Part shown: positions 8,633 to 30,732 of the stretch, piece by piece
Position numbering within the stretch: position 1 is the first letter of the stretch
How the letters are laid out: every line of letters starts with the position of its first letter
NCBI GenBank assembly: GCA_963798845.1
Contig: CAWCUS010000003.1
Location: 96,001 to 160,000, forward strand
From: an uncultured Gemmatimonadales bacterium
Lineage (GTDB): Bacteria; Gemmatimonadota; Gemmatimonadetes; Longimicrobiales; RSA9
Direction: 5' to 3'
Length of the DNA stretch: 64,000 bases
Position numbers and translations under genes: made by a program
The notes under the pieces: generated by a model
The model's database searches: none
What the model saw: the letters and a program-made list of their open reading frames with translations, nothing else
What the model was told of the DNA's origin: nothing

Positions 8633-8677
8633 TTGCCGACGGAACCGTGAAGCCCTAATCGTGTCTATCATCACGAG
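8633..8677 (+). promoter_or_regulatory. sigma70-like promoter with overlapping Rex-type operator
   Basis: TTGCCG(8633)-N17-TAATCG(8656). TCGTG-tctatcat-CACGA at 8659-8676. GGAGG RBS follows. Confidence 0.65.
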
Positions 8678-8694
8678 ATCGGAGGAAACCGACG

Positions 8695-10023
8695 ATGGTA
8701 ACCGCCTCCCGGCCCCAGGCCCCCACGCTTCCGCGCGAACGGTGGTTCACGAGCGAAGACTGGTGGTCTGTCATTCTGGGCCTTTTCCTGCTGGCCGCCT
8801 GCTGGGCGGCCTTCGTGTTGCGCGCGCCGCTCACCACGCTGGGCAGGGCGAAGCCGACTGCGTGGCCGGCCCACCCGCTCGGCCCCCACTTCGCCGAGAC
8901 CTGGCCGGCGTACGTGGCGATGCTGGCGGTGCTCACCGTTCTGACGACCGGCGCGGTGTACGTCATGACGGGGAAGGCGCGGAACTACGTCCTCGGCTTC
9001 CTCGTGCTGTTCGCGGCGTCCACGCTGGTGATGATCCTGGGGGCGCAGGAGCAGCTGAAGACCTACGGCCTCGAGACCGCGTTCTGGGCGCTGGTGATCG
9101 GCCTCGCCGTGGGCAACACCATCCACCTCCCCGTGTGGTTCCAGGCCGCAGCCGGCCGGACGGAGTTCTTCATCAAGACGGGGATCATCCTGCTCGGCGC
9201 CCAGCTCTCCTTCAACGTCATCATCGCCGGTGGCGTGTGGGGGTTCCTGGAAGCGCTGCTCATCGTCTCCGCCGGCTTCACCACCGCCTTCTTCATCGCC
9301 AAGCGTATGGGCTACGACAACCGCTTCGCCGCCGTGCTGGGCGCCGGCGGCTCGGTATGCGGCGTCTCGGCTGCCATCGCCGTCGGCGGGGCCGTGAAGG
9401 CGAACGAGAAGCAGGTCGGCTACGTCATTTCCCTTGTCGTGCTCTACGCGCTCGTGCTCATCTTCCTCCTCCCCGCCATCTCCCGCGGGATCGGGCTCAG
9501 CGAGGTGGTCGCAGGCGCCTGGATCGGAGGCTCCGAGCTCGCAGACGCCGCCGGCCTCGCCTCCGCCGCCATGATCTCCGAGAAGGCGGTCCAGGCCTTC
9601 ACGCTGGTCAAGCTCAACCGCGACGTCATGATCGGCTTCCTCTGCTTCCTGTTCGCCTACCTCGCCGTCACGCGGTGGGACGTCAAGGAGTCCGGCACCA
9701 AGCCGAGCCCGAGGGTCATCTGGGACCGCTTCCCCAAGTTCGTCCTTGCCTTCCTGGTCACCTCCATCGTGATCACCGCCCTCGACAGCAGCATCGGCCC
9801 GGACGTCGCCACCTACATCGTCGCTCCACTGGGCACCATTCGCGGCTGGCTCTTCACCATCGCCTTCCTCTGCATCGGCCTGAACACCCGTATCGAGGAC
9901 GTCCGCGCCATGGGCGCCAAGCCCATCATCGCGTTCACCACGGTCGTGCTGGTCAACGTCAGCGTCGGCTTCATCCTCGCCAACCTCTTCTTCGGCGGCA
10001 TCATCGCCGCGCCGCTCAAGTAG
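8695..10023 (+). CDS. Putative sulfate exporter family transporter (YeiH/UPF0324)
   Basis: Multi-pass membrane protein with EDWWSV, EFFIKTGIILLGA, GGSVCGVSAAIA, GAWIGGSE and VKLNRD. Confidence 0.85.
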   Translation: MVTASRPQAPTLPRERWFTSEDWWSVILGLFLLAACWAAFVLRAPLTTLGRAKPTAWPAHPLGPHFAETWPAYVAMLAVLTVLTTGAVYVMTGKARNYVLGFLVLFAASTLVMILGAQEQLKTYGLETAFWALVIGLAVGNTIHLPVWFQAAAGRTEFFIKTGIILLGAQLSFNVIIAGGVWGFLEALLIVSAGFTTAFFIAKRMGYDNRFAAVLGAGGSVCGVSAAIAVGGAVKANEKQVGYVISLVVLYALVLIFLLPAISRGIGLSEVVAGAWIGGSELADAAGLASAAMISEKAVQAFTLVKLNRDVMIGFLCFLFAYLAVTRWDVKESGTKPSPRVIWDRFPKFVLAFLVTSIVITALDSSIGPDVATYIVAPLGTIRGWLFTIAFLCIGLNTRIEDVRAMGAKPIIAFTTVVLVNVSVGFILANLFFGGIIAAPLK

Positions 10024-10054
10024 GCGCCGCGACAATACGCTGAAACGGCCTCAC

Positions 10055-10094
10055 GGCACCGGCAACGCCTGCCGCGGGGAGGCGTTGCGGTGCC
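10055..10094 (+). terminator. Stem-loop after the transporter gene
   Basis: GGCACC(g)GCAACGCCT ... AGGCGTTGCGGTGCC, 15 bp with one bulge. No U tract. Confidence 0.45.
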
Positions 10095-10115
10095 ATGGCG
10101 AGGGTGACGTGGGGG

Positions 10116-10160
10116 TTGACGGGGAGCAGCAGCGGCAGTAATCGTGACTTTTGGCACGAT
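10116..10160 (+). promoter_or_regulatory. sigma70-like promoter with overlapping Rex-type operator
   Basis: TTGACG(10116)-N17-TAATCG(10139). Perfect ATCGTG-acttttgg-CACGAT at 10141-10160. Confidence 0.7.
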
Positions 10161-10206
10161 AGACTCCGGCCCGCCCCTGCCGGCTCTGAAAAACGGAAGG
10201 TAGACC

Positions 10207-11742
10207 TTGGAGGCGACGCAGGCGGTTGCGGGGGACGGGAGGGGGAACCCGAGGCCGGCGTCCGAGCGGAAAGCGGACGAAGGGGGTCCCGCGGGCGCGG
10301 AGCGCGCGCTGATGGCGCGTCCGGAGCTGAGCATTCGGACGCGGATCATGGGCGTGTTCGCGCTGCTATTCGTTCTGTGCACCACCATCACGGTGGCGGC
10401 GGTGGTGTTCCTGTCGGCCTTCCAGGCCAAGATCCGGTTCCTGGAGAACGCCGGGAGCTATTCCTTCGAGATCGAGGAAGCGCGGCGCAACGAGAAGAAT
10501 TTCTTCCTGTACGGGACGGGTCTTCCGGAGGCGCTTGCGAGCGCGACGCTGGCGCAGAGCCACCTGGAGCGGAACGTGGACCAGATCCGCTCGGTGGTGG
10601 GTGGTGCGAAGTACGAGGAGATGGAGCGAAGTCTCGCGCGCTACCGAAGCCTGCTGGAGGAGCTGGTCCGACTGGAGGAAGGCGCGGAGAGGGCGACGGC
10701 GTCGTCGTCCCGGGGGATCGAGGTGAGACTGCGGACCGAAGGCGCGCAGCTGCTGAACGACGCCGAGGAAATGATCGCCGGCGAGCGGTCGGCGGTGTCT
10801 GCGATGCTGCACACCTCCATGCTCGCGGCGTTCGCTTTCCTGGGGTTGATGCTGCTTCTGATGGTGGTGTTCGCGGGGTTCGTGATCCGGACGGTGGTGC
10901 ACCCGCTGGAGCGGTTCATGGATTACATCGAGCGGATCGGCGCCGGGAACTACGAGCCGATCCAGCCGGTGCGGCGGTTCCGGGACGAGTTCTCCTCCCT
11001 GGCGCTGGCGTTCAACCGGATGCTGGGGGAGTTCGTGACGCACCAGGAGCAACTGGTGCAGTCGGCGAAAATGGCTGCGGTGGGGACGCTGACGTCGGGG
11101 ATCGCGCACGAGCTGAACAACCCGCTGAACAACATCGGGCTCACGGTGGAGGCGCTGCTGGACGACCTCGACGCCTACCCGGAGGAGGACAAGCGGCGCA
11201 TGCTGGAGCAGGCGTACACGCAGGTGGAGCGGGCGAGCACCACCGTGCGGAACCTGCTGGACTTCACGCGCAAGGACCGCTCCGCCTTCACCACGGTGTC
11301 GGTGGCGAAGGTGGTGGCTTCGGTGCTGCGACTGGTGCAGAACGAGGCGCTGCTGGGCGGCGTGGAGTTCGAGAGCTCGATCCCCGGTGACCTTCCCCCG
11401 GTGCGGGGCAACCCGCACGACCTCGAGCAGGTGTTCCTGAACCTCTGCCTCAACGCGATCCAGGCGATGCCGGACGGCGGCCGGGCGGAGGTCACGGCCG
11501 TGGCGGAGGGCGAGGAGGTGAGGGTGGATGTCGCCGATACCGGTGCCGGGATCGCGCCGGAGCACCTGGATGAGATCTTCGATCCGTTCTTCACGACGAA
11601 GGAGCCGGGAGAGGGCACGGGCCTGGGACTGTCCGTGAGCCACAGCATCATCGAGCAGCACCGGGGCCGGATCACCGTGGCCAGCGAGGTCGGGAAGGGA
11701 ACGACGTTCTCCGTATACCTGCCGGCGGCGGTCGGGAAGTGA
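10207..11742 (+). CDS. Membrane sensor histidine kinase (2 TM, HAMP, HisKA, HATPase)
   Basis: H-box GIAHELNNPL, N-box QVFLNLCLNA, DTGAGI, FDPFFTTK and GTGLGL. Alternative start ATG 10312. Confidence 0.92.
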   Translation: MEATQAVAGDGRGNPRPASERKADEGGPAGAERALMARPELSIRTRIMGVFALLFVLCTTITVAAVVFLSAFQAKIRFLENAGSYSFEIEEARRNEKNFFLYGTGLPEALASATLAQSHLERNVDQIRSVVGGAKYEEMERSLARYRSLLEELVRLEEGAERATASSSRGIEVRLRTEGAQLLNDAEEMIAGERSAVSAMLHTSMLAAFAFLGLMLLLMVVFAGFVIRTVVHPLERFMDYIERIGAGNYEPIQPVRRFRDEFSSLALAFNRMLGEFVTHQEQLVQSAKMAAVGTLTSGIAHELNNPLNNIGLTVEALLDDLDAYPEEDKRRMLEQAYTQVERASTTVRNLLDFTRKDRSAFTTVSVAKVVASVLRLVQNEALLGGVEFESSIPGDLPPVRGNPHDLEQVFLNLCLNAIQAMPDGGRAEVTAVAEGEEVRVDVADTGAGIAPEHLDEIFDPFFTTKEPGEGTGLGLSVSHSIIEQHRGRITVASEVGKGTTFSVYLPAAVGK

Positions 11743-11765
11743 ATCTGCAGCTTGAGTGAAGCGAT

Positions 11766-12692
11766 ATGAATCATCTGGCGATCTATCTCCCCGTTGCGGG
11801 GAGCGCGGTGAGCATCCCGCTCCTGATCGGTCTCGGGGCCGTGGTGGGGTTCATGTCCGGGCTGTTCGGGGTGGGCGGCGGCTTCCTGATGACGCCGCTG
11901 CTCATCATGATCGGGATCCCACCCACGGTGGCGGCCGCCTCGGACTCGAACCAGATCGTGGCCGCGTCGTCGTCGGGGACGTACGCCCACGCCCGCGCGG
12001 GATCCGTGGACACGCCAATGGGGCTGCTGCTCCTCGTGGGGGGCATCGCGGGTGGCTCGCTGGGCGTCGTGCTGATCAAGTTCCTGCGGGCCATGGGGAA
12101 CGCCGACTTCGTGATCACGGTGACATACGTGGTGATGCTCGGCGGGATCGGCGCCTACATGTTCGTGGAGAGCCTGCGCAGCATGCGGACGGGCCCCGAC
12201 GTACGGGAGGTCGCGGCGAAGCCGTCGATGTACGCTCGGGTGGTCCAGGCGCTGCCGTGGAGGATCCGATTCCGCCGCTCGAACGTGCAGCTGTCGGTGC
12301 TGATGCCTCTGCTGCTCGGCGTTCTGGTGGGCACCCTGGCCGCGATCATGGGTGTGGGAGGCGGCTTCATCATGGTCCCGGTCATGGTATACCTGCTTCG
12401 CATGCCGATGCACGTGGTGGTCGGAACCAGCCTCTTCCAGATCCTCTTCACGTGCATCAACGTCACGGTCCTCCAGGCGACGCTCAACCACACGGTGGAC
12501 TTCATCCTCGCCCTCTTTCTCCTCATTGGCTCCGTGGTGGGCGCGCAGCTCGGAGCGCTGGTGAGCAAGCGGCTGAAGGCGGACCAGCTCAAGATCCTCA
12601 TGGCCATCATCGTCCTGGTCGTCACGGGCAAGATGCTCCTGGGGCTGGTCCTGCCGCCGGAGTTCCTGGTCAGTTACGCGGGAGGCCACTGA
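11766..12692 (+). CDS. TauE/SafE (TSUP) family sulfite/sulfate transporter
   Basis: Repeated GLFGVGGGFLMTP / IMGVGGGFIMVP motifs and VVGTSLFQI. Confidence 0.9.
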   Translation: MNHLAIYLPVAGSAVSIPLLIGLGAVVGFMSGLFGVGGGFLMTPLLIMIGIPPTVAAASDSNQIVAASSSGTYAHARAGSVDTPMGLLLLVGGIAGGSLGVVLIKFLRAMGNADFVITVTYVVMLGGIGAYMFVESLRSMRTGPDVREVAAKPSMYARVVQALPWRIRFRRSNVQLSVLMPLLLGVLVGTLAAIMGVGGGFIMVPVMVYLLRMPMHVVVGTSLFQILFTCINVTVLQATLNHTVDFILALFLLIGSVVGAQLGALVSKRLKADQLKILMAIIVLVVTGKMLLGLVLPPEFLVSYAGGH

Positions 12693-13582
12693 TGCCTGGC
12701 CAACGGATGTCCACGGCCGCGGGCGTGCTCGCCGCCTGCTGCGTGGCCGTCGCGATCGTCGTCCCCGCCCCCTCGCGGGTGTCGGCGCAGGAGCCGGGCG
12801 CGACGGCGGCGCCCGACCAGGACACGACCCGCGGGCCGGTGGTGGAACGGGCGCACGAGCTGCCCGGGGAGACGGCTGCCGCCGCGGTCGGTTCCGGCGC
12901 GGTCGTGGTGGAGCCGGCCGAGATCGTGGCCGGGATGTTCTACGCCGGGGCCACCATCCACGTGAGCGCGGTGGTCCCGCAGGGTGCGGCCGTGACGGTA
13001 CTCTGCCACAGCGAAGGTCACCCGCTGACCCTGAAGCGGAAGGGCAAGGCGCTCGGGCTGCTCTGGTTGAACGTGGGCGACGTGTCCTTCGAGGATGTCC
13101 CGACCGCGTACCTGCTGGCCACGTCGCGGCCCCTGACGTCGCTGGCGCCGGATTCCGTGCTCGAGCAGCTCGACCTCGGGTTCGTGGCGCTCGCCTCGCG
13201 CTGCGACGCGGACGCCTCGGACCCTGTACTTTTCAGCGAGCTGGTACGTCTGAAGCAGAAGGAGCGGTTGTGGACGGTGGCGGAGAACACGGTGGCAGTC
13301 CAGCCGGCAGAAGGCGACGCCGGGCTGGCCACGACCGACATCACCCTGCCCCCCAAGGCGGGCCCAGGCGAGTACGAAGTGCTGGTGTACGCCTTCCAGG
13401 ACGAGCGGCCGGAGCTCATCGGGAGCGCGCGGCTCCGCATCCGGCAGGCGGGCGTGACTGGGTTCATCACCGACCTCGCTACGGACCACGGGCTTCTGTA
13501 CGGAATCCTCGCGGCGACCGTGGCGATCGCCGTGGGCCTGCTCACGGGTCTCGTCTTCGGGATGGGCTCGAAGGGGCACTGA
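12692..13582 (+). CDS. TIGR02186-like periplasmic protein with C-terminal TM anchor (TauE partner)
   Basis: Signal peptide, LKRKGKALGLLWLN, LP.KA.PGEYEV and a C-terminal TM helix. TGATG coupling to the TauE gene. Confidence 0.75.
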   Translation: MPGQRMSTAAGVLAACCVAVAIVVPAPSRVSAQEPGATAAPDQDTTRGPVVERAHELPGETAAAAVGSGAVVVEPAEIVAGMFYAGATIHVSAVVPQGAAVTVLCHSEGHPLTLKRKGKALGLLWLNVGDVSFEDVPTAYLLATSRPLTSLAPDSVLEQLDLGFVALASRCDADASDPVLFSELVRLKQKERLWTVAENTVAVQPAEGDAGLATTDITLPPKAGPGEYEVLVYAFQDERPELIGSARLRIRQAGVTGFITDLATDHGLLYGILAATVAIAVGLLTGLVFGMGSKGH

Positions 13583-13589
13583 GAAGGAG

Positions 13590-16574
13590 ATGATGCTGGG
13601 GAGCGTGCGCGCGCTGTTCGGCCGCCGCGGGGCGGATTCCGCCGAGAGGATCCGGAAGAAGCTGACGACCTTCCGGGACCTGGTGGAGAAGAACGACCGC
13701 GTGCTGGAGCTCATCGCCGACGCAGGCGAGAAGCTGGGCGGCGAGTACGTGTTCGACACGAAGTATCTGGACGACCTCGTCCGGGACCTGAAGAGCGCCG
13801 TCCACGGGGTGGTCGAGGACCTCAACACCCTCACCGGCAACCGCTACCCGGAACTGCTCCAGGTCGTGGCGTCCCTCGACGCACGCGTCCGCGCGGCGCT
13901 GGAATGCCGCACCCGAATTCCCGACGGCCCCTACATCGTCCCGGTGGAGGAAGCCGGCTTCGAGCAGGTGGAGGTCGTGGGGGAGAAGCTCGGCCGACTG
14001 GGCGAGATGCAGACCCGGCTGGACTGCCGGATCCCGGATGGGTTCGTGGTCACGACGCGCGGCTGTCGGGACCTGCTCGAACAGGCGGGGGTCCTCGACG
14101 CCGCGGAGTCGCTCCGCTCGCGCCTGGGCGAAGACGGAGCGGCGCTGGAGTCGGAAGCGCTGGAGCTGCAGGCCCGCGTCCTTTCCGCCTCGGTTCCGCG
14201 TGACGTGGCCCGGAGCATCCGGCGCGAGGTGGACCGGCTCCAGGCTCGCCAGCCCGGAGCGCTCTTCGCCGTGCGCTCCAGCGCGGCGGAGGAGGACGGA
14301 GCGCTCACGTTCGCCGGCCAGTACGAGACGGTGCTCGGCGTCGATGCCGACGACGTGGTCGACGCGTACCAGCAGGTGGTGGCGAGCCTCTTCTCGCCCA
14401 ACGTGATCCGCTATCAGCAGCACCACCGTCTTCCGCCCGGCTGCGGTCTGATGGCGGTCGGCTGCCTTTGCATGGTCCCGGCGCGGGCGAGCGGCGTCGT
14501 CTACACCCTGAACCCTTCGGCCGCGGCCGCCCGGGTCCAACTCGTGACCTCAACCTGGGGCCTCGGCAAGGCCGTCGTCGAGGGCGAGGCGCCCGTGGAC
14601 CGGTTCGAGGTGCTGCGGGAGCCGGGCTACCCGGTGGCCGAGACCCGCCTGGCTTACAAGTCGTGGAAGTACGTGGCCCGTCCGGGCCGTGGGACGGTGC
14701 GGGAGCCGGTGCCGGAAGAGCAGCGCGGAGCGCCGTCGCTCACGCCGGCCCAGGTTTCGGAGCTGGCGGACATCGCCTGCCGGATCGAGCGCTACATGAA
14801 GGCGGCCCAGGACATCGAGTGGGCCATCGACGACGAAGGCCGCCTGTTCATCCTCCAGGCGAGGCCGCTCAGCATCCCGGCCGACCGGGACCACGAGCGT
14901 CAGGACCTGTCCGACGTCGTCGCCCGCTACCCCGTCCTGCTGCGCGGGCGAGGAGACGTGGCCTGCCGCGGGATCGGGATCGGCCGCGTCCACGTGGTCG
15001 AGCACGAGGCGACCCCCGGCGACGTCCCTCCCGGCGCCGTGCTGGTGGCACGGACCGCGACGCCCCGGCTCGGCGGGGCGCTGGCAGGGGTGAGCGCGGT
15101 CGTCACCGACCTCGGCAGCGCCACCGGCCATTTCGCAGCCGTCGCCCGCGATTTCCGCGTCCCCACCATCGTCTCCACCGGGGTCGCGACGCGCACGCTG
15201 CTGGAGGGGATGGAGGTGACGGTCGACGCCGAAGAGAACGTGGTCTACGAGGGCCGAATCGACGAGCTGCTCCGGCACCAGCTGCTCATGCGCTCGTCCT
15301 TCGAGGACACGAACGAGTTCCGTCTCCTGCGCCGCGTGCTGCGGACCATTGCCCCGCTCGGACTTCGCGACCCGCAGAGCTCCGGGTTCTCGACCTCCCA
15401 GTGCCGCACCTACCACGACGTGATCCGCTTCGCCCACGAGAAGGCCATCGCGGAGCTCACGGACATCGGGTGGGTCAAGGCGACCGGCGACCAGTCGCAC
15501 CTCCGCCGACTCGACCTGCCGATCCCGCTCGACCTGATCCTCATCGATCTCGGGGGGGGGTTCCGCGTCCGCGCCGGCCACGATACCGCGAGCCTCGATG
15601 ACCTCACCTCACGCCCGCTGCTGCCGCTCCTCGAAGCCCTCACGGCCGAGGGCATCTGGGAGACCGCCCCCGCCGACATGGACATGGACGGCTTCATGTC
15701 CAGCGCGACCCGCTCCATGGCACTCACCGGGCCGCTGGCGAGCCGGCCGACCCAGAACCTCGCCATCGTGGGCGGACGCTACCTGCACCTCAGCCTCCGC
15801 CTGGGCTACCACTTCAACATCGTCGACGCCCACCTCGGGGACACCCCGGCGGACAACTACATCTATTTCCGCTTCGCCGGCGGCGTGACGGAGCTGACCC
15901 GGCGCTCGCGCCGCGCAACACTGCTCAAACAGATCCTCGAGGACCACGGCTTCGTGACCGAGGGAGGCGAGGATCTGGTCATCGGACGCGTGAAGGGCCT
16001 CGCCCCCGACATCATGGAAGAGCGCATGCGCATGCTGGGGCGGCTCATCGGTTTCACGCGGCAGCTGGACGTGTTCCTCAGAAACGACACGCTCGTGGAC
16101 CGCTACGTGGAGCGGTTCATGGGCCGGGCAACACCCCTGGACGACGGGACTTCCGAAAACGGAATGGAGAACGCCATGAGCAGCACTGCCGACGTGTTGG
16201 TGCTGGACGACGAGCCGATGGTGGCTGAGCGTCTGAAGGACCACCTGGACCGGAAGGGCTATCAGGTCGAGGTGTTCACCGATAGCCAGACCGCCATCGA
16301 TCGCCTCGCCGTGCAGCGCTTCGACGTGGTCATCACGGATCTCAAGATGGCCGGGCCGACCGGGCTGGACGTCCTTCGGTTCGTGCGGGACAACAGCTTC
16401 GGGACACAGGTCATCATCATCACCGGATACGGCTCGATGGACGCGGCGAGGAAGGCGGAATACACCGGCGCCTTCGATTTCGTGAACAAGCCGTTCAGCA
16501 TGAAGACGCTCGAAACCATGACCCGCAAGGCCGCCAGGAAGGCCCGGAAGCTCCACGCCAAGGAGCCTCTGTGA
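13590..16574 (+). CDS. PEP-synthase-like protein (ATP-grasp + phospho-His swivel domain + unknown domain) fused to a C-terminal receiver domain
   Basis: VGEKLGRLGE, FAVRSSA.EED..FAGQYET, QDIEWA and LQARP. Swivel motif GSATGHFAAVARDF. REC motifs LDDE, ITDLKM, IITG and NKP. Confidence 0.88.
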   Translation: MMLGSVRALFGRRGADSAERIRKKLTTFRDLVEKNDRVLELIADAGEKLGGEYVFDTKYLDDLVRDLKSAVHGVVEDLNTLTGNRYPELLQVVASLDARVRAALECRTRIPDGPYIVPVEEAGFEQVEVVGEKLGRLGEMQTRLDCRIPDGFVVTTRGCRDLLEQAGVLDAAESLRSRLGEDGAALESEALELQARVLSASVPRDVARSIRREVDRLQARQPGALFAVRSSAAEEDGALTFAGQYETVLGVDADDVVDAYQQVVASLFSPNVIRYQQHHRLPPGCGLMAVGCLCMVPARASGVVYTLNPSAAAARVQLVTSTWGLGKAVVEGEAPVDRFEVLREPGYPVAETRLAYKSWKYVARPGRGTVREPVPEEQRGAPSLTPAQVSELADIACRIERYMKAAQDIEWAIDDEGRLFILQARPLSIPADRDHERQDLSDVVARYPVLLRGRGDVACRGIGIGRVHVVEHEATPGDVPPGAVLVARTATPRLGGALAGVSAVVTDLGSATGHFAAVARDFRVPTIVSTGVATRTLLEGMEVTVDAEENVVYEGRIDELLRHQLLMRSSFEDTNEFRLLRRVLRTIAPLGLRDPQSSGFSTSQCRTYHDVIRFAHEKAIAELTDIGWVKATGDQSHLRRLDLPIPLDLILIDLGGGFRVRAGHDTASLDDLTSRPLLPLLEALTAEGIWETAPADMDMDGFMSSATRSMALTGPLASRPTQNLAIVGGRYLHLSLRLGYHFNIVDAHLGDTPADNYIYFRFAGGVTELTRRSRRATLLKQILEDHGFVTEGGEDLVIGRVKGLAPDIMEERMRMLGRLIGFTRQLDVFLRNDTLVDRYVERFMGRATPLDDGTSENGMENAMSSTADVLVLDDEPMVAERLKDHLDRKGYQVEVFTDSQTAIDRLAVQRFDVVITDLKMAGPTGLDVLRFVRDNSFGTQVIIITGYGSMDAARKAEYTGAFDFVNKPFSMKTLETMTRKAARKARKLHAKEPL

Positions 16575-16614
16575 TCACTCGAAGTCGCGAAGCGCACGGA
16601 GGGGGAGCAACCCC

Positions 16615-16992
16615 ATGACCAAGACCCCCAAAAAGGTGCTGCTGCTGGACGACGAGCCCGTGGTCTGCGAACGCCTGAAGCCCGCCCTCGAGAAGCTCGG
16701 CTTCTACGTGGAGTCCTACACCGAGAGCCAACCGGTGGTCGACCGCGTCCTCGAGGAGAGGTTCGACGTCCTGGTCACGGACCTGAAGATGCAGAAGCCC
16801 GATGGCCTGGAGATCATGAACTTCGTCCGCGAGCACTCGCCGGCCACCAAGGTGATCATCATCACCGGCTTCGCCACCGTCGAGACGGCGACGGAGACCC
16901 TCAAGGGCGGGGCCGTGGACTTCATCGCCAAGCCGTTCAAGATCCGGACGCTCTGCGACCGGATCGTTCAGCTCACCCGGGAAGAGGCGTGA
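16615..16992 (+). CDS. Stand-alone response regulator receiver protein
   Basis: LLDDE, VTDLKM, IITGF and IAKPF. 125 aa. Confidence 0.92.
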   Translation: MTKTPKKVLLLDDEPVVCERLKPALEKLGFYVESYTESQPVVDRVLEERFDVLVTDLKMQKPDGLEIMNFVREHSPATKVIIITGFATVETATETLKGGAVDFIAKPFKIRTLCDRIVQLTREEA

Positions 16993-17017
16993 ACGGGGGC
17001 CTCAAGGCCACGCGGGC

Positions 17018-17830
17018 TCAGACCGTGTAGTCCGGCGCCGCCAGGTTCTCGCGGTCCACCCGCTCGACGCCGGGCACGCTCCCCGCGACCTCGATCACCG
17101 CGTCCACCAGCGACGGAGGCCGCAGCCGGCCCCGCAGGTACACCGCCCCGTCCTGTGCGCGCAGCCGAACCTCGGCGGAGAACGTCCGCTCGTCCGCCGC
17201 CAGCGCCGCCTGCACGCGGCTCGCCAGACCCAGGTCCGCCATTGCCTTCCGGCTCTCGGACGTCGGCTTGAACCGCGGCGACCGCGACGCCAGTACCACC
17301 AGCGCGACCGCGTCCTCCACCTCCAGCGTACGCAGGTTGATGCACAGGTCGTACAGCCGAGGGTCGAGCCAGTCCACGCCGTACAGGAAGCGCGTCCACT
17401 TCTCCCGCTGCCGGTCCAGCTTCTCGATCCGCTCCTCGGCTTCTTCCTCGCTGAGATCCGAGCGCTCCTGCAGCACTCGGTCCCGGAAGTCCGCCGGCGC
17501 GATCAGCCGCACCCGCACGACGTGCGAAATCCCGGGCAGCAGCAGGTGCCCCGCGTTGCCGTGGTACACCAGACGACCCGCCTGCGCGCGCTCCACCAGC
17601 GCCGCCTGCACGTAGGCGATGTACCGCCGCCGCTCGTGCTGCACCCGGTCCCACAGCCGCGGCGGCTCCAGCAGCGCCTTCCGCAGCGCATCCTCCGAGG
17701 CACCGAAGCGCGTCGCTTCATGCACCACTTCCTCACGGCTCACCACCGTATAGCCGAGCTCGGCAGCCACCGCCTCCGCCAGCTCCTGCCCTCCGCTCCC
17801 AGAGCCCCGGGATATCGTAATGATCGACAT
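17018..17830 (-). CDS. Cytidylate-kinase-like family protein with C-terminal BON-like domain
   Basis: MSIITISRGSGSGG, VYHG, VRLIAP and YDLCIN. C-terminal DGAVYLRG...VPGVERV. Confidence 0.8.
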   Translation of the reverse strand: MSIITISRGSGSGGQELAEAVAAELGYTVVSREEVVHEATRFGASEDALRKALLEPPRLWDRVQHERRRYIAYVQAALVERAQAGRLVYHGNAGHLLLPGISHVVRVRLIAPADFRDRVLQERSDLSEEEAEERIEKLDRQREKWTRFLYGVDWLDPRLYDLCINLRTLEVEDAVALVVLASRSPRFKPTSESRKAMADLGLASRVQAALAADERTFSAEVRLRAQDGAVYLRGRLRPPSLVDAVIEVAGSVPGVERVDRENLAAPDYTV

Positions 17831-17929
17831 AGCGCTTCGTTGCCGCGGCCTCCCTGCCGGCCCCCGATCGGGGCCGGGCCAATTCGTTCCTGCGTTCACG
17901 AATCACTGTGGCCGCTGCCGCGCCCCGCG

Positions 17930-18370
17930 TCAAGACGCGGCAGGCGCGGCGGACAGCAGCTTCTCCACGGCGGCCAGGAGCTGGTCGCGGTCGATGGGCT
18001 TGGGGAAGAAGCCGTCCGGCGGCGGGACGGCGTCGCTCTTCCGGATGAACTTTTCATAGCCGTACGGGTCGCCGCCATAGCCGGTGACGGCGGTGATGAT
18101 GACCACGGGAACTCCGCTGAGGGCGGGGTCGTTCTTCACAGTCCGGTAGAAGCGTGTTCCCGAGGCCCTGGGCATGGAGATGTCCAGGGTGACGAGGTCG
18201 GGCTTGTGGCTGCGCAACATCTCCAGCGCCGCCTCGCCGTCGCCGGCGATGAGCGTCTCGTAGCCGGTGTCGCGGAAAAGCATGTCTAGATAGTCGACGA
18301 CATCCTGCTCGTCATCGACGATGAGGATCTTCCTGGCCGGCCCTTGCGCGGCCTGGTCCGGTGCGGGCAT
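17930..18370 (-). CDS. Stand-alone receiver protein (Rrf1-like position downstream of the hmc-like genes)
   Basis: IVDDE, LDISMP, IITA and PKP. Confidence 0.9.
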   Translation of the reverse strand: MPAPDQAAQGPARKILIVDDEQDVVDYLDMLFRDTGYETLIAGDGEAALEMLRSHKPDLVTLDISMPRASGTRFYRTVKNDPALSGVPVVIITAVTGYGGDPYGYEKFIRKSDAVPPPDGFFPKPIDRDQLLAAVEKLLSAAPAAS

Positions 18371-18413
18371 GGCTCGCCTCCTTGCTGCGGTATCCAAGCG
18401 ACCCGGTCCGCCG

Positions 18414-18944
18414 TCAGGCGCCGGGCGTGGTGCGTTTCAGCGCCTCCAGGGCGCGTCTGAGGGCGTGGGGCTCCGCCTGGGTGAGCTGGCGGCGCACCTC
18501 GTCCTGGAGGGTGATGCGATCCTCGTCGCCGGGGCTCTCTTCGAGGCCGAGGGCGCGCTGGACGCAGCGGACGTAGTCCAGCGGCTTGACGGGCTTCTCG
18601 AGGTAGACGCCGGGCCCCGATATGACGCGGCTCTCGACAATGTCCTCGAGCTCGGCGCGTCCGAGCTCATCGCGGGCGTGGGCGGTGACGATGAGGACGG
18701 GGATGCGGGAGAGCGCGTGGTCCTTTCGGAGCTCGTAGAGGAGCTTGTGGCCGCTCTTCCCGGGCATGACGAGGTCGAGGGAAATGAAGTCGGGTGGCTG
18801 CTGGCGGATGAGGTCGAGGGCCTCGTCGCCGTCCGAGGCGGTTCGGACCTGAAATCCTGCGTCCCTCAGGATCTGAGCGAGGTAATCGCGGACGTCCGGC
18901 TCATCATCCACCACCAGCACGGTCCTGTCCTGTGGCCGCTCCAT
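18414..18944 (-). CDS. Receiver protein with short helical C-terminal extension
   Basis: VVDDE, LDLVMP, IVTA and EKP. Confidence 0.9.
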   Translation of the reverse strand: MERPQDRTVLVVDDEPDVRDYLAQILRDAGFQVRTASDGDEALDLIRQQPPDFISLDLVMPGKSGHKLLYELRKDHALSRIPVLIVTAHARDELGRAELEDIVESRVISGPGVYLEKPVKPLDYVRCVQRALGLEESPGDEDRITLQDEVRRQLTQAEPHALRRALEALKRTTPGA

Positions 18945-18948
18945 GGCG

Positions 18949-20088
18949 TCATCCCTTCGTGTGGTTCTGCCCGTCGGCCCCGTCGGCCTGTTCGGCGGCC
19001 GCGGAGGTGGGCAGCGTGTTGCGAGGCAGCTCGATCCGGAACACCGATCCTTCTCCCTCGTGAGAGGTGAAGGAGATCCGACCCCCGTGCTGGTGCACGA
19101 GGCGGCGTGTGGTCAGGAGCCCGAGGCCGGTGCCACGGTCCGAGCCTTTCGTCGTGAAGAACTTGGAAAACACCTTCCGGCTCAGCTCGTAGTCCATGCC
19201 CTTGCCGTTGTCCGCCACCTCGTAGACCAGGACGCCGTCGTTCTCGGAGACGGTCACGCGGACCACGAACTCGCGGTCCTTGTCGGCCACGGTGCACGCG
19301 TCGATGGCGTTGGAAACCAGGTTGGCCAGGGACGTATGGATCCCGGCCTCGTCCAGCAGCGCCGGGGCGATGCCGTCCTGCGGCTCGAAGTCGAGGCGGA
19401 TGCCGGCGCGGGCGGCACCATCGCGGAACAGATCGACAGCGTTCCTCGCCGGCAGTACCGGGTCGGTGAGGGCGACCACGGCGGGGCGTCCCTTGGCGAA
19501 GTCCAGGAACTCCTTCATGAAGGCGGAGATCCGGTTGACGTTCTGCTCCAGGGTGGTCCAGCCGCGGGCGATGCGCTCGTCGTCGCCGAGCTGGATACCG
19601 GTGTTCACGGCATACATGCCGCCTTCCAGGCCCATGAGGATGTTCTTCACCCCGTGGGCGACGCCGGCCACGGTCTCGCCCACGGCGGCGAGGCGCTCGG
19701 CTTCCCGCTTCTCCCGCTCGAGGCGCTTCACGACGGAGATGTCGGTGGACATCTCAATGACGTAGGGGATGTCGCCGTTGGGTCGGACCAGGGGGACCAT
19801 ATGGACCAGGTAGTCGATCTCCCGGCCATTTCCCATCACGCCCTCCTCCTCCTGCTCCCGGATGGAGCCGTCCGCGAAGGTGGCCAGGGCGGCGCACCGA
19901 AGGCAGGGCTCGTCGCGCCCCTTGTAGACCTGGTAGCAGGGCCGCCCCTGCCAGTCCCCGAACTCCGACTCGAAAGCCAGGTTCGCGTCCACGATCCCGT
20001 AATTGCGCCCGATGACGCTGATGGCGACGGGCACCTCGTCGTAGAGGTGCGTGTGGAGCCAGTCCCGGATCTCGTCCGTGTCCATCAT
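18949..20088 (-). CDS. Cytoplasmic PAS histidine kinase
   Basis: PAS domain with CY.VYKGRDEPCLRC. H-box GVAHGVKN, NLVSNA, DNGKGM, FFTTK and GTGLGL. Start ATG 20088. Confidence 0.9.
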   Translation of the reverse strand: MMDTDEIRDWLHTHLYDEVPVAISVIGRNYGIVDANLAFESEFGDWQGRPCYQVYKGRDEPCLRCAALATFADGSIREQEEEGVMGNGREIDYLVHMVPLVRPNGDIPYVIEMSTDISVVKRLEREKREAERLAAVGETVAGVAHGVKNILMGLEGGMYAVNTGIQLGDDERIARGWTTLEQNVNRISAFMKEFLDFAKGRPAVVALTDPVLPARNAVDLFRDGAARAGIRLDFEPQDGIAPALLDEAGIHTSLANLVSNAIDACTVADKDREFVVRVTVSENDGVLVYEVADNGKGMDYELSRKVFSKFFTTKGSDRGTGLGLLTTRRLVHQHGGRISFTSHEGEGSVFRIELPRNTLPTSAAAEQADGADGQNHTKG

Positions 20089-22193
20089 GGCAGCGATCCT
20101 CCTTCCGTGCCGGGCTGCCGCTCGCGCGTGGCGGCGCGTGCCACGTCCGTGGCTGTCGGGCCGGGCGAGCGCAGGGGCGTGGATGCGGCTGTGGTCCGGG
20201 CGGGCTCGAGCTGCTGGAGGGCGCCGGAACGGTCCGCGTCGTGGCACGTTTCGCAGCGTGCCAGATTCTCGGGATGCTCCCCCGGCTCCGAGCGCAGGGC
20301 CTCCTCGTGGCACGCGATGCACACGCCGTGCATGGCGTCCATGTAGCCCGGGGCGGCGCGCCACCGCTCCTGCGCCGCCGGGATGATCGCGCTCTGCCCC
20401 GCGTCGCGAGCGTGGCACTCCATGCACGCCGTCGACGTGGCGTAGGTCCTGGTCGCGATGCCCGGGGCGTGGCACTGCTGGCAGCCGTCGTTCCCTGCCA
20501 GCGCCTCCACGTGCGACGCATGGTCGAAGACGGCGGTGCTGTCGTACATGTCCCGGTGGCACGCGCCACAGCGGCTCGCTTCCTCGAGCGGGAGATTCAG
20601 GTGATGGCAGGTTCCGCAGCCGTCGTCGCCGCCAGCGCGCTCCACGTGGGCGTCGTGGTCGAACAGGACGGCGTTGCGGTCCCGACCCCCATCGATGAGC
20701 AGCAGCACGGCCTCGCCCGGATCCATCATCCCCGGTCCACCCGTGCCGCCAGCCGCCTCCGTTTCACCCGCTCCGCCGGGGACGTTCGATGCCGGCGATA
20801 CCGCGTGCGCGTGCAGCGTCTCGCTCGCGGCGCCGGCCAGCGCCAGCAGCCTCGCCTGCCCCGGCCGCTCCGAAATGGTCCCGGCCACGGAGCGCGCGTC
20901 CGCCACGGGTACCGGGCGCGGGCGCGCCCCCGAAAGCGGAAGGAACAGGAGCGCGATCACGAAGCCGGCGAGCGCCATCCCGCTGTTCAGGTGGGGGCCC
21001 GCGAGGCGCGGCGGGAGGAGCCCGTGCACGGTGGTGGGCTCGAAGCTCCGAGGCCTGGCGCGGACGGTGTCGGCGGAAACGTCGTCGTACACGCGCAGGT
21101 GCTCGACGAAGAAGATGAAGACCAGCATGAACGCCGACACGATCCCGACGCTCACGGCGAGCTCTTCCCAGCTGGGGAAGTACGGCATGTCCGCAGGCCT
21201 CGCGAACGCCACGACGGAAACGTCCAGCCGGTACAGGATCATGCCGGCCACGGTCATGGCGCCCGCCACGCCCACGCCGCGGATGCTGTTCCGGACCCGC
21301 GGGATGGCCATGAGCACCACGGGGATCCCGGCACTGAGGGCGAGCTCGGCCACGAACAGCACCCCGTGCCAGGACGGCTGAAGCGCACTGACCAGCACGC
21401 CGCGGGCCGCCAGGTCGCCCAGCCGCAGGGCCAGGTACAGCGTGAGCACCACGGCCGCCGCGGCGCCCAGGCCGGACATCTGGCGCCGGTGAAGCGCGTG
21501 GCCGAGGAACCGGTGGGCGAACATGGACTCTGTCACCACCATCGACAGACCCAGAGCTACGGCGGAGACGAAGAAGAGCACGTAGATGATCGGCGAGTAC
21601 CAGAGCGGGTGCAGCCGGTAGGGCGTGATCAGGAAGAGGGAGCCCAGCGACGACTGGTGCAGCGTGGAAAGCATGATCCCCAGGATGACCAGCGGGATCG
21701 TCACCTTCCGGAGCGCGGCCAGAGTCGTGCGGAACGGCCGCCAGCGGAAGAGGGGGTGCTCCAGGATCGCGGGAGCGAACTCCAGCGCCAGGACGGTCAG
21801 GTAGAGCATGACGCACATGGCGACTTCGAACAGCACGGAGTGGTGCTGCCAGTGGAACAGCGGGTGCCAGATGCGCCAGGGGAGACCGAGGTCGTAGAGG
21901 AGCCCCACCGCCACGGCCGCGTAGCCGAGGAACGCCGTGAGCACCGCGGGGCGCGCGAAGGCGTGGTAGCGCTCCAGGTGGAAGATGTACACGGTGGCGG
22001 CCATGACGAACCCGCCAGCCGCCAGCGCAACGCCGGACATGACGTCGAAGCCGATCCAGAGGCCCCACGGGGTCGCGTCGGACAGGTGGGTCACCGCCCC
22101 GAGCCCCCGGGTGTAGCGCACCATGCTGACGGCGACGAGCACGCCGACCAGCGTCCACAATACCAGCTTCAGCCGCACCAGCCGCTCACGCAT
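20085..22193 (-). CDS. HmcC/HybB (NrfD-type) membrane subunit fused to a C-terminal multiheme cytochrome c (6 CxxCH)
   Basis: PWGLWIGFDV..GVALAAGGF, DLGLPWRI, SVLFEV and STLHQSSLG. Then CGTCH, CGACH, CQQCH, CMECH, CIACH and CETCH, with c3-like FDH..H motifs. Confidence 0.88.
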   Translation of the reverse strand: MRERLVRLKLVLWTLVGVLVAVSMVRYTRGLGAVTHLSDATPWGLWIGFDVMSGVALAAGGFVMAATVYIFHLERYHAFARPAVLTAFLGYAAVAVGLLYDLGLPWRIWHPLFHWQHHSVLFEVAMCVMLYLTVLALEFAPAILEHPLFRWRPFRTTLAALRKVTIPLVILGIMLSTLHQSSLGSLFLITPYRLHPLWYSPIIYVLFFVSAVALGLSMVVTESMFAHRFLGHALHRRQMSGLGAAAAVVLTLYLALRLGDLAARGVLVSALQPSWHGVLFVAELALSAGIPVVLMAIPRVRNSIRGVGVAGAMTVAGMILYRLDVSVVAFARPADMPYFPSWEELAVSVGIVSAFMLVFIFFVEHLRVYDDVSADTVRARPRSFEPTTVHGLLPPRLAGPHLNSGMALAGFVIALLFLPLSGARPRPVPVADARSVAGTISERPGQARLLALAGAASETLHAHAVSPASNVPGGAGETEAAGGTGGPGMMDPGEAVLLLIDGGRDRNAVLFDHDAHVERAGGDDGCGTCHHLNLPLEEASRCGACHRDMYDSTAVFDHASHVEALAGNDGCQQCHAPGIATRTYATSTACMECHARDAGQSAIIPAAQERWRAAPGYMDAMHGVCIACHEEALRSEPGEHPENLARCETCHDADRSGALQQLEPARTTAASTPLRSPGPTATDVARAATRERQPGTEGGSLP

Positions 22194-28798: not shown

Positions 28799-29718
28799 TT
28801 CCCCACCTCCGACGTCGCGATGTCCACCCAGTTCTTCGATCCGTCCGCGCCGACGTGCTTGGCCGACCACGTCACCTTCTGCTGAAGCAGCTCGAGCACT
28901 TCCGCTTCCAGCTTCCCGCCCACTTCCAGCGGATGGTCCTCCCACCGCACCTGGTGGTACGTGAAGTACTTCGCCACGAAATGCATCATCTGGCTGAACG
29001 GCAGGTACGCCAGGAACACACCGGTCAGCACCACGTGCGCCGCCAGCGGCCCCGGAACCGGCGTGGATGCGTCCCCGGTCAGGAGCGCCCCGGCCACGCC
29101 GAGCGCCCGCATCCCGAACGATGGGACGGTCACAACCGCCCAGACGCCCGTGCCGAACAGCGCCAGCAGGAGCACCAGGTTGAAGTACGCCACCCGGCTC
29201 GTCATCACCCTCAGGTCCCGCATCGCGACCCGACTCACCAGCAGTCCCAGTGCCCCCACGCCGCCGAGAACGAAGGCGACGCCCGCCAGAACGGTCAGCG
29301 CCGTCCCGACCACCGGAGCCGTCGCCGACGCCACGCCCAGCAGCCCCAGCACCGCCGCGAGCAGCGCCAGCCCGGTCAGCCCCATCAGCACGTACAGCCC
29401 CACGTGGAACGGGTACGACGACCACCACAGCTTCCGGTTGTGCTCCCACAGCGCCTTCAGGAACAGAATCTCGGTCAGCATGTAGGACAACTCTCCCCAG
29501 AGCGACTCCTCGCGCGGCTTCTTCCACCACTCGTACTCTTCCAGATACGAGCCGCCGTAGCGGCTTCGGCCCTTCTCCTTCGGCACCGGGGCCAGCTCCC
29601 AACGCAGGTGAACCGGCAGCCTCGCCAGTCGTACCGAGCGGATCACGAACGCGAGGACGAACGTGCCGAAGAGGACGTAACCAACAGCTAGCAGAACGGG
29701 ACCGGACATCGTGTTCAT
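28795..29718 (-). CDS. Second DsrM-like (NarI gamma family) membrane cytochrome b
   Basis: PVHLRWELAPVP.E, GGSYLEE.EWW, YPFHVG and AYLPFSQMMH. Start ATG 29718. Confidence 0.85.
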   Translation of the reverse strand: MNTMSGPVLLAVGYVLFGTFVLAFVIRSVRLARLPVHLRWELAPVPKEKGRSRYGGSYLEEYEWWKKPREESLWGELSYMLTEILFLKALWEHNRKLWWSSYPFHVGLYVLMGLTGLALLAAVLGLLGVASATAPVVGTALTVLAGVAFVLGGVGALGLLVSRVAMRDLRVMTSRVAYFNLVLLLALFGTGVWAVVTVPSFGMRALGVAGALLTGDASTPVPGPLAAHVVLTGVFLAYLPFSQMMHFVAKYFTYHQVRWEDHPLEVGGKLEAEVLELLQQKVTWSAKHVGADGSKNWVDIATSEVGK

Positions 29719-29803
29719 CTCCGGAGCGCAGTGATCGTGGCGCCTGCTGAACGCCCGCGCCGCCTCTGTTCTCGACATCGCGGGCGTGCGCGCGCGTGCC
29801 CAA

Positions 29804-29821
29804 TCGTGGCAAACGTCACGA
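29804..29821. promoter_or_regulatory. Rex-type operator near the dsrM2K2-like promoter
   Basis: TCGTG-gcaaacgt-CACGA. Minus-strand TTGACG at 29854-29849. Confidence 0.65.
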
Positions 29822-29895
29822 ATAGAGCTTGCGCTGATCTCTCTCCGGCGTCAAGTCCCTCGTCCGGCGGGTGGGCGCCGGCGCAGGGCGCGCAA

Positions 29896-29913
29896 TCGTG
29901 CCAAGTGTCACGA
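29896..29913. promoter_or_regulatory. Rex-type operator upstream of rex (possible autoregulation)
   Basis: TCGTG-ccaagtgt-CACGA, adjacent to TTGACC(29917)-N17-CAGCAT. Confidence 0.65.
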
Positions 29914-30021
29914 GGGTTGACCTTTCGGCGAACAGGCACCAGCATTCACGTTGAATGGCAGAAGTCGGCCGCACGGCCGCCGGGTGGTCGCGCGGCCCTT
30001 TCACGGGAGGCTGTTTCCACA

Positions 30022-30732
30022 GTGGCACGCTTGCGCAGGGTCGTCCTCGAGCGCCTCATCCGGTACTACCGGTACCTGACCGAAGTCACGGCGAAGCGGC
30101 CGCTCCAGACGATCACGAGCGGACAGCTTGCCACGGTGCTGGACGTGGACGCGAGCCAGGTGCGGAAGGACTTCAGCGCGGTGGGACTGGTCGGCGTGAG
30201 CCGCGTCGGTTACGACGTGTGCGAGGTCTGCCGCACCATCCGGAGCGAGCTTGGATTCGACAACACGTACGAGGCCGTGGTGGTCGGCGCCGGCCACCTC
30301 GGCGTGGCGCTGGCGAACTATGGTGGGTTCGACCGATACGGGCTGCGCGTGGTGGCGGCGTTCGACAGCAACCCCGACGTCATAGGCGAGCGGTTCGGCC
30401 AGGTGGCGGTTCGCTCGGTCCACGACCTGAAGGGGTTCGTGGAGGAGCGCCGGATCCCGGCGGCGATCCTGACCACCCCCGCGAGCGTGGCGCAGTCCCT
30501 GGCCGATCTCCTCGTCATGGCCGGGGTGAAGGCCATCTGGAACTTCACCCCCACTCGCCTGAACGTCCCCGATCACGTCCTGGCCCGGAACGAACACATC
30601 TCCGTCGGCCTCGCCGAGATCTCCTTCCACCTCAGCGGCGTTCTCGACCGCGACCGACCCGGCAACACGGTCGGGCTCTGCTGCGCGGAGAACAACGTCG
30701 CCCCTTCCCTGGCGGGCCGCCGCCGCCGCTAG
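30022..30732 (+). CDS. rex: Redox-sensing transcriptional repressor Rex
   Basis: RL..YYRYL, SQVRKDFS..G..G....GY, VGAGHLG.AL, AAFD and GVKAIWNFTP. GTG start after GGGAGG. Confidence 0.93.
   Translation: MARLRRVVLERLIRYYRYLTEVTAKRPLQTITSGQLATVLDVDASQVRKDFSAVGLVGVSRVGYDVCEVCRTIRSELGFDNTYEAVVVGAGHLGVALANYGGFDRYGLRVVAAFDSNPDVIGERFGQVAVRSVHDLKGFVEERRIPAAILTTPASVAQSLADLLVMAGVKAIWNFTPTRLNVPDHVLARNEHISVGLAEISFHLSGVLDRDRPGNTVGLCCAENNVAPSLAGRRRR

Follow-up and report, generated by a model that had tools for sequence, protein, structure and literature searches.

Judged by architecture, the closest known system to the genes described here is the 'nitrate cluster' of Desulfovibrio vulgaris and D. alaskensis (DVU0251-DVU0245 and Dde_0597-Dde_0605; PMC4001038), whose mechanism and function are not established. 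As listed in that paper, it encodes a TauE permease, a small hypothetical protein, a PtxB-like protein, a kinase, a receiver-only protein, a protein of 744 amino acids with PPDK_N and mobile domains, and a dual-specificity phosphatase. Transposon mutants in most of these genes, including those for TauE, the receiver and the dikinase-like protein, as well as mutants in rex, are reported to resist 100-150 mM nitrate, and the strongest phenotype is that of the TauE mutants. The same paper proposes a leaky thiosulfate transporter and cites a mild growth defect on thiosulfate as unpublished data (PMC4001038). Here we describe a comparable module in a stretch of 64,000 nucleotides (the window) from a bacterium whose nearest relatives, by the loci of homologues and by the enzyme tree, are Gemmatimonadota. 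The module comprises a sensor histidine kinase, a TauE-family permease with its Alph_Pro_TM partner, a dikinase-like enzyme that carries a fused receiver domain, and a lone receiver; a gene for a YeiH-family permease lies ahead of it.

A second related case comes from the 2026 proteome of Dissulfuribacter thermophilus. There, adjacent genes for a phosphoenolpyruvate (PEP) synthase, a 'transmembrane protein co-occurring with TauE' and TauE are reported as up (log2 3.40, 1.79 and 1.56) under thiosulfate disproportionation, with the PEP synthase filed under carbon metabolism (PMC13490349). By analogy, these two sets of experiments on related modules make thiosulfate as likely a substrate as sulfate (PMC4001038, PMC13490349). 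For the TauE (TSUP) family itself, a homologue from Pseudomonas fluorescens is reported to rescue growth of an Escherichia coli cysA mutant (PMC11535334), and Marietou et al. 2018, who found one highly conserved clade of TSUP proteins in 25 of 44 genomes of sulfate reducers, raise the possibility that it is their primary sulfate carrier (PMC5840216). Further, the sigma-54 operon DVU2957-DVU2967 of D. vulgaris contains a TSUP 'clade B' gene (DVU2958), whose product was put forward as a possible sulfate carrier, and also encodes a membrane protein, a kinase and receivers (PMC4641369; PMC5840216). How sulfate reducers and disproportionators take up sulfur anions, and how this uptake is regulated, is described as still an open question (PMC5840216). 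Our literature searches found no paper that describes a module of the window's type as a unit.

Compared by architecture, the window module and the nitrate cluster each have a TauE gene with a small partner gene behind it, and each encode a sensor kinase and a protein made up of a receiver only. In both, the enzyme combines PPDK_N with a mobile domain and has no annotated PEP-binding domain, and both have a link to Rex, which in Desulfovibrio is genetic and in the window a putative one. There are also clear differences: the partner is an Alph_Pro_TM protein of 296 amino acids in the window but a hypothetical protein of 195 amino acids in the nitrate cluster; the window module has neither the PtxB-like periplasmic protein nor the dual-specificity phosphatase (Pfam finds none among the genes 8695-20562); and in the window a receiver is fused to the enzyme and a conserved Cytidylate_kin2+BON gene stands beside the module. 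The DVU2957-DVU2967 operon is likewise similar by annotation: its TSUP permease gene precedes one for a hypothetical membrane protein, and a kinase and proteins consisting of a receiver only are encoded with them; unlike the window module, it contains no dikinase-like gene in its published annotation and is driven by a sigma-54 activator (PMC4641369; PMC5840216).

We propose that a receiver-gated phospho-histidine enzyme controls a TSUP sulfur-anion permease, with Rex-type control of transcription in addition, and we consider this proposal about equally likely to be right or wrong. TauE and a periplasm-facing, single-pass Alph_Pro_TM subunit would move a sulfur oxyanion, the candidates being thiosulfate, sulfate and sulfite, with thiosulfate slightly favoured. 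A periplasmic signal read by the kinase would lead to phosphorylation of two receiver domains, and the fused receiver would turn the enzyme on or off. Phosphate from ATP would then pass to His514 of the enzyme and on to an acceptor held by a new C-terminal domain, and this phosphotransfer step would control or support transport without a transcription factor. The module operon and the YeiH gene are probably regulated in trans by the Rex-type regulator of the neighbouring sulfur island, through the palindrome TCGTG-N8-CACGA.

Results

The gene cluster

A preliminary description of the locus, made from its letters alone and starting at position 8633 (62 nucleotides 5' of the YeiH ATG), had reported six genes in the same orientation, the last five closely packed and none of them a DNA-binding regulator. 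All three points hold. Domain calls for the window proteins are based on Pfam and NCBIfam profile searches, and each of the six genes has a Pfam match. A gap of 288 nucleotides separates YeiH from the kinase gene. After that the spacing read from the sequence is tight: 23 nucleotides from kinase to TauE, a 1-nucleotide overlap (TGATG) between TauE and Alph_Pro_TM, and then 7 and 40 nucleotides. Pfam finds no DNA-binding domain in any of the six genes, nor in the convergent minus-strand operon at 17018-20562. The coordinates are collected in Table 1.

The dikinase-like enzyme

The enzyme begins with a helical stretch of about 115 residues, for which Pfam gives two chance-level hits at E 10 and nothing more. 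This is followed by a PPDK_N ATP-grasp domain (residues 128-432, E 5.8e-71), a swivel domain matching the PEP-utilizers mobile domain (residues 480-549, E 1e-15), a C-terminal domain at about 556-845 (the C-domain) and the receiver at 869-977. His514 lies within GSATGHFAAVARDF, which we take to match the catalytic histidine motif of the PEP synthase PpsA. Like PpsA and pyruvate phosphate dikinase (PPDK), the enzyme thus has an ATP-grasp domain followed by a phospho-histidine mobile domain, with the histidine motif intact; it differs from them by a domain of about 300 amino acids in place of the barrel, by the extra N-terminus of about 115 amino acids and by the fused receiver.

The top NCBIfam match is the PEP synthase model PRK06464 (E 8.9e-89), with 298.5 bits against a cut-off of 598 and a match covering model positions 6-470 of 798. 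Residues 556-854 match no Pfam family at E up to 10, the PEP-utilizers_C barrel (PF02896) included; the same barrel is detected in two other genes of the genome, and a canonical PPDK and an EI-like protein are encoded elsewhere in it. In the AlphaFold model (pLDDT 75.5) the C-domain is alpha+beta and contains no barrel. Relatives of the enzyme carry the label 'pyruvate, water dikinase' in their source annotations. This label is very likely wrong and the enzyme very likely not a PEP synthase, because the barrel is missing, the C-domain is predicted to have another fold and a canonical PPDK exists elsewhere in the genome. The pyruvate barrel of the PEP synthase type appears here to be replaced by a conserved domain not previously described.

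When 66 C-domains are aligned, 15 columns prove invariant; they include C605, H609, D610, R613, H616, H741, N756, R775 and D827. A profile of the domain finds 1572 proteins among 1.84 billion representatives (E up to 0.001), and in every full-length protein (about 830-900 amino acids) among the 150 listed the domain is located at approximately residues 530-890, behind the swivel domain. Searches for similar folds gave little: no matching sequence in the PDB up to E 10, a best Foldseek E of 0.018, a best VIA-align Z of 7.2 in both searches, which is background level, and members of its own family only in the ESM Atlas. With a PAP phosphatase the Z is 7.1, with 83 residues aligned at a root-mean-square deviation of 3.5. 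A DHH/DHHA1-type fold was considered, as RecJ, GdpP, this PAP phosphatase and AlaRS C-Ala recur among the weak hits; they do not rise above unrelated ferredoxin-like folds, and we keep this as a lead only.

Other dikinase-like genes were also seen. Three further PPDK_N genes without PEP-utilizers_C exist in the genome (G000:C1:711084-714943, G000:C2:279745-280845), unmatched to the module enzyme at E 1e-60. In four related loci (L042, L054, L057 and L064) a pair of paralogous dikinase-like genes stand less than 10 kb apart. In a close relative, fragments of a canonical PPDK with PEP-utilizers_C and PPDK_N (L001:18342-20596) lie about 5 kb 3' of the module, beside a CitMHS+TrkA_C carrier and a Cytidylate_kin2 gene.

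The permease, its partner and the signalling proteins

TauE matches PF01925 over the entire model (positions 1-237 of 237; 169.2 bits, cut-off 32.6) and is 59-83% identical across phyla. Mean column identity is 74% in the TauE alignment, which spans four or more phyla, and 35% in that of Alph_Pro_TM. The Alph_Pro_TM protein, which directly follows TauE with its start overlapping the TauE stop, matches PF09608 with 140.2 bits (cut-off 24.5). Against TIGR02186 it obtains 69.6 bits, under the cut-off of 255.25; by this profile comparison it is a distant relative of the alphaproteobacterial TIGR02186 set. In its structural model the N-terminus is disordered and signal-like, a helical insert accompanies the two beta-sandwich domains, and a membrane helix forms the C-terminal end. 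The fold search returned generic Ig-like sandwiches and nothing else. In this model the partner looks like a single-pass accessory subunit rather than a classical solute-binding protein.

The kinase open reading frame was listed from 10207, and since the relatives align from the ATG at 10312 we take this as the start. HisKA (E 1.3e-13) and HATPase_c (E 1.2e-29) are both recognized, with His266 in the motif GIAHELNNP. The periplasmic sensor ascribed to the kinase in the preliminary description is borne out by two membrane helices, read from the sequence, that flank a periplasmic stretch of about 150 amino acids; this region has no Pfam match even at E 10. A second kinase in the window (62233-63786) is 44% identical to the module kinase from end to end, the sensor region included.

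The two receivers match Response_reg with E 6.5e-24 (fused) and 6.3e-26 (lone). Their acceptors, Asp917 and Asp56, are present, as are the DD, T and K positions, and as read from the translations the phospho-acceptor residues of the module are all intact. For the lone receiver, identity to its counterparts in the 10 closest loci listed ranges from 65 to 85%. Regulation by the receivers had been proposed to be post-translational. Such a non-transcriptional output is plausible because both receivers keep the acceptor Asp and have no output domain; what does not stand is its generality, as sigma-54 activators adjoin the module in some relatives.

Conservation across phyla

With the 994-residue enzyme as query and one genome per species, 587 stretches with relatives were obtained, of which 80 loci were kept. 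A receiver is fused to or adjoins the enzyme in 47 of the 80 loci, a kinase is found in 39, a TauE-family gene of any kind in 35, Alph_Pro_TM in 25 (directly 5' of the enzyme in 19) and a Cytidylate_kin2 gene in 13. Kinase, TauE, Alph_Pro_TM, dikinase and receiver occur together in relatives from seven phyla, and the gene set and order are conserved across phyla.

A FastTree analysis of 75 enzyme sequences gives two clades, split with 100% local support. The window's clade (34 rows) has members in Gemmatimonadota, Myxococcota, Acidobacteriota, Binatota, an Acidithiobacillales genome, Thermodesulfobacteriota and Nitrospirota. Alph_Pro_TM is found in the locus in 25 of these 34 rows, the window counted, and of the nine rows that lack it five have less than 6.1 kb of upstream sequence. 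In the other clade (41 rows) it is found in one. The loci of that clade contain a different TauE, DUF4881, the enzyme, receivers and Cache/PAS kinases, and they are nearer to the Desulfovibrio layout than the window is. The enzyme gene tree departs from taxonomy, which points to horizontal spread, and the module appears to move horizontally.

There is also variation in how the receiver is joined to the enzyme. It is a C-terminal fusion in the window and in many Desulfobacterales, a downstream gene in two relatives (L001 and L003) and an upstream gene in Nitrospirota. The modules of Desulfobacterales and Nitrospirota carry Usp proteins in place of Cytidylate_kin2+BON.

YeiH had been counted as a member of the module, and this we abandon: a YeiH homologue is found in 2 of the 80 related loci, and here the gene stands behind the 288-nucleotide gap. 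It looks like a separate transcription unit. As part of our proposal, and with the same even balance of belief, we regard it as a co-regulated neighbour outside the module with a palindrome of its own. The protein itself matches PF03601 with 171 bits (cut-off 24.5) and obtains 96.6 bits with TIGR00698, below that model's cut-off of 232.6. The inverted repeat that follows the gene (10056-10094) is not among the predictions of the terminator scan.

Association with dissimilatory sulfur metabolism

The window has 68% G+C and contains a full dissimilatory sulfur island, with the gene cluster at the island's left edge. The island includes rex (29692-30732), aprBA, qmo-like genes, sat, dsrC, a dsrT-like gene, dsrMK-type genes, dsrAB (47483-49873), a dsrN-like amidase gene and three TauE genes. 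Directly after dsrB, in the position of dsrD, lies an open reading frame of 86 amino acids (49874-50134) with no Pfam match at E 1e-5.

The tie to dissimilatory sulfur genes that the preliminary description supposed is seen in other genomes as well, and it withstands the refuting condition named there, namely that the module be just as frequent where such genes are lacking. DsrB is found in 46 of 50 genomes with a homologue of the dikinase, and so is AprA (46 of 50). The enzyme family was found almost only in genomes with dsr or apr genes. Of 301 sampled genomes from the window's phylum, 8 have DsrB, 2 the enzyme and 3 Alph_Pro_TM, and all occurrences of the latter two are within the 8 DsrB-positive genomes. 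In 14 control genomes there is no match to Alph_Pro_TM. The distance from the module to aprA is 4 kb in a Binatia locus (L008). By these counts the module is confined to dsr/apr genomes; that it is an accessory of dissimilatory sulfur metabolism is a further part of the proposal for which we see the chances as evenly divided. The idea that it tracks AprA instead of DsrB is not supported across the 8 DsrB-positive genomes of the phylum.

The palindrome and Rex

The canonical Rex operator consensus is TTGTGAA-N4-TTCACAA. Two Rex-type boxes had been noted in the preliminary description, and as canonical operators they fail: with up to 3 mismatches no site is found near the cluster, and at both 8659 and 10142 the sequence departs from the consensus in 5 of 14 positions, a level that 38 sites in the window reach. 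What is real at both spots is a related palindrome, TCGTG-N8-CACGA, which keeps the GTG-N8-CAC spacing. It has four exact copies in the window against an expected mean of 0.13 in 300 Markov simulations, none of which reached four. When up to 1 mismatch is accepted there are 13 copies, compared with 3.96 +/- 1.84 in shuffles, and over the 4.26-Mb genome there are 18 copies against 4 for the reversed control pattern.

The rex gene encodes a protein with Put_DNA-bind_N and CoA_binding domains (Pfam), and the two palindromes 5' of it suggest autoregulation. In relatives the palindrome is found at corresponding places: about 167 nucleotides before the orthologous kinase in L002, in a conserved block following a conserved TTGACG, and between a divergent rex and an operon running from a DsrK-like gene into the kinase in L001 and L003. 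From these patterns we infer that the palindrome may be the Rex operator. Copies with one mismatch are also seen before aprB (30926) and at the start of the Cytidylate_kin2+BON gene (17884).

Two other regulatory ideas were considered and dropped. A genome-wide regulon defined by the palindrome has no clear Rex-type theme, the neighbouring genes including those for IF-2, MobB, an ABC ATPase and succinyl-CoA ligase. Of a sigma-54 promoter before the kinase gene only the -24 half, TGGCAC, is seen, with 3 mismatches of 10 overall.

Neighbouring genes

Table 1. Positions of the module genes, their neighbours and the palindromes in the window.
Feature	Position	Strand	Basis
Exact palindrome, 36 nucleotides before the YeiH ATG, candidate Rex-type operator	8659..8676	.	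Pattern statistics
YeiH-family (Cons_hypoth698) permease, 442 amino acids	8695..10023	+	Pfam E 3.7e-50
G+C-rich inverted repeat, 33 nucleotides 3' of the YeiH stop; may form a terminator-like hairpin, lacks a T run	10056..10094	+	Read from sequence
Exact palindrome, 170 nucleotides before the kinase ATG, after conserved TTGACG	10142..10159	.	Block conserved with L002
Sensor histidine kinase, 476 amino acids, HAMP + HisKA + HATPase_c	10312..11742	+	Pfam
TauE/TSUP-family permease, 308 amino acids	11766..12692	+	Pfam E 1.6e-49
Alph_Pro_TM (PF09608) partner, 296 amino acids	12692..13582	+	Pfam E 1.2e-40
Dikinase-like enzyme fused to receiver, 994 amino acids	13590..16574	+	PPDK_N + PEP-utilizers mobile domain + about 300 amino acids + receiver
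Lone receiver, 125 amino acids, Asp56, without output domain	16615..16992	+	Pfam
Cytidylate_kin2 + BON protein, convergent on the receiver gene	17018..17899	-	Pfam, related loci
Two receiver-only proteins, convergent operon	18414..18944 and 17930..18397	-	Pfam
PAS histidine kinase, start of the convergent operon	18949..20562	-	Pfam
Two exact palindromes before rex	29804..29821 and 29896..29913	.	Pattern search

The convergent operon at 17018-20562, which ends 25 nucleotides from the receiver gene, forms a second signalling chain without a DNA-binding output. Nine of the closest loci likewise have its last gene, Cytidylate_kin2+BON, running toward the end of the module. The genome has four strong Cytidylate_kin2 (PF13189) genes, all of them in the window (17018-17899, 53275-54054, 54055-54876 and 58535-60457). 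In relatives such genes adjoin carriers of the TauE, DASS/CitMHS+TrkA_C and SulP types; in one case (L016:17084-18310) the gene is fused to a receiver. Cytidylate_kin2 proteins may be nucleotide-binding regulators of anion carriers.

A second module, at 58535-63786, contains a Cytidylate_kin2 protein of 640 amino acids, a TauE, a receiver and a kinase. In the Binatia locus L008 both modules are contiguous and adjoin aprA. A DASS (Na_sulph_symp) carrier gene is located at G000:C3:164428-165732, 4.4 kb past the right end of the window and beyond this second module. SulP and DASS carriers are also found near the module in L001 and L016.

Discussion

Several observations weigh against the proposal that the receiver-gated enzyme controls a sulfur-anion permease under Rex. 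Most of the 14 palindrome copies outside the window are inside genes or beside unrelated ones. In several relatives sigma-54 activators adjoin the module, where the output may be partly transcriptional, so that regulation is not purely post-translational in the family as a whole. Five of the 8 DsrB-positive genomes of the phylum have neither the enzyme nor Alph_Pro_TM at these queries, and the module is therefore dispensable for the lifestyle; further, the two other carriers, G068 and G178, both fragmented assemblies, give no AprA match, while five non-carriers are AprA-positive. The nitrate cluster seems, by gene sizes and order, to match the other enzyme clade, the one with DUF4881, and both it and the Dissulfuribacter genes were likened to the module by annotation and gene order alone. 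Finally, the genome also encodes SulP, DASS and PiT candidates and seven TauE genes. Nothing therefore forces sulfate uptake onto the module permease, and the idea of this TauE as the only candidate sulfate carrier was rejected for the same reason.

The enzyme could have a more specific role, as the ATP-driven head of a regulatory phosphotransfer route resembling the phosphotransferase system (PTS), with the two-component receiver as its gate. Phosphate would then pass from ATP to His514 and from there to a Cys/His site in the C-domain or to a partner protein. A comparable known system is the nitrogen-PTS (EI-Ntr, NPr and EIIA-Ntr): a phospho-histidine enzyme of the PEP-utilizer type with a sensory domain, whose phosphotransfer regulates transporters and not genes. 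In contrast to the window enzyme, it takes its phosphate from PEP and not from ATP and uses different carriers, and we claim homology for the swivel domain only. We regard this PTS-like role as unlikely.

Among the alternatives, the preliminary description itself deserves first attention. It took all six genes, YeiH included, as one sulfate or sulfite uptake system under Rex boxes, with the phosphorylated receivers acting directly on TauE. The TauE family has a member with demonstrated sulfate uptake (PMC11535334), and a conserved TSUP clade has been put forward as possibly the main route by which sulfate reducers take in sulfate (PMC5840216). The same palindrome precedes YeiH and the kinase operon, and the SulP and DASS carriers near the module in L001 and L016 can be counted in the same direction. 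However, the YeiH gene is near the enzyme in just 2 of 80 loci, and 288 nucleotides with an inverted repeat separate it from the operon here. The dikinase, which is the most distinctive and dsr-specific part, is left without a role, the conserved convergent Cytidylate_kin2+BON gene is overlooked, and the published hints favour thiosulfate at least equally with sulfate. In sum, a single six-gene uptake system is fairly improbable.

A different possibility is that TauE and Alph_Pro_TM are a co-sensor, which reports anion flux to the kinase, and that the true output is the enzyme, which would phosphorylate a cytoplasmic metabolite or protein unrelated to transport. The kinase gene is located 23 nucleotides 5' of TauE, and its paralogue with the same sensor region adjoins another TauE in the window. 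Further, enzyme homologues without Alph_Pro_TM are found in 55 of 80 loci, and the invariant Cys/His/Asp/Arg set of the C-domain fits a catalytic site. On the other hand, mean column identity is 74% in TauE against 35% in Alph_Pro_TM, as for a working carrier, and in Desulfovibrio it is the TauE mutants that are reported with the strongest nitrate phenotype (PMC4001038). We therefore find a sensing role for the permease an unlikely one.

The enzyme might also be a second kinase for receivers, passing phosphate from ATP via His514 to a receiver Asp in parallel to, or instead of, the classical kinase. Chemically, a phospho-histidine carried by a mobile domain can donate its phosphate to Asp, and 47 of the 80 loci have a receiver fused to or adjoining the enzyme, in three different layouts. 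This too would leave the large and strongly conserved C-domain without a role, and 39 of the 80 loci, among them most of those in the window's clade, have a classical kinase, so that we hold the receiver-kinase role to be very unlikely. That the database annotation is correct, and that a PEP synthase (pyruvate, water dikinase) merely adjoins the permease, is almost certainly wrong: PRK06464 is indeed the best NCBIfam match (E 8.9e-89) and relatives are so named, but the match stops at model position 470 of 798 with 298.5 bits, below the cut-off of 598, PEP-utilizers_C is absent, the C-domain is predicted to be alpha+beta and the canonical PPDK is elsewhere in the genome.

Implications

The module is one of few gene sets beyond the core apr, sat and dsr genes that follow the sulfur lifestyle, and it does so in seven phyla. 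It joins a permease and signalling proteins to an enzyme whose reaction is yet to be defined. Its Desulfovibrio relative decides nitrate sensitivity, which makes it relevant to the control of oil-field souring (PMC4001038). Further, 'PEP synthase' is likely a wrong name for several hundred proteins so annotated in genomes of the sulfur cycle, and such labels steer proteomics toward readings in terms of carbon metabolism, as for example in PMC13490349.

The invariant residues of the C-domain and the fused receiver are direct handles for biochemistry, and the palindrome provides a testable tie between redox state and the module. If the PTS-like role of the enzyme is true, a phosphotransfer route of this kind would switch or energise TSUP sulfur-anion permeases in organisms living by the respiration or disproportionation of sulfur compounds. 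This would be a previously unrecognised control of anion transport, with the C-domain as a novel acceptor fold particular to that way of life.

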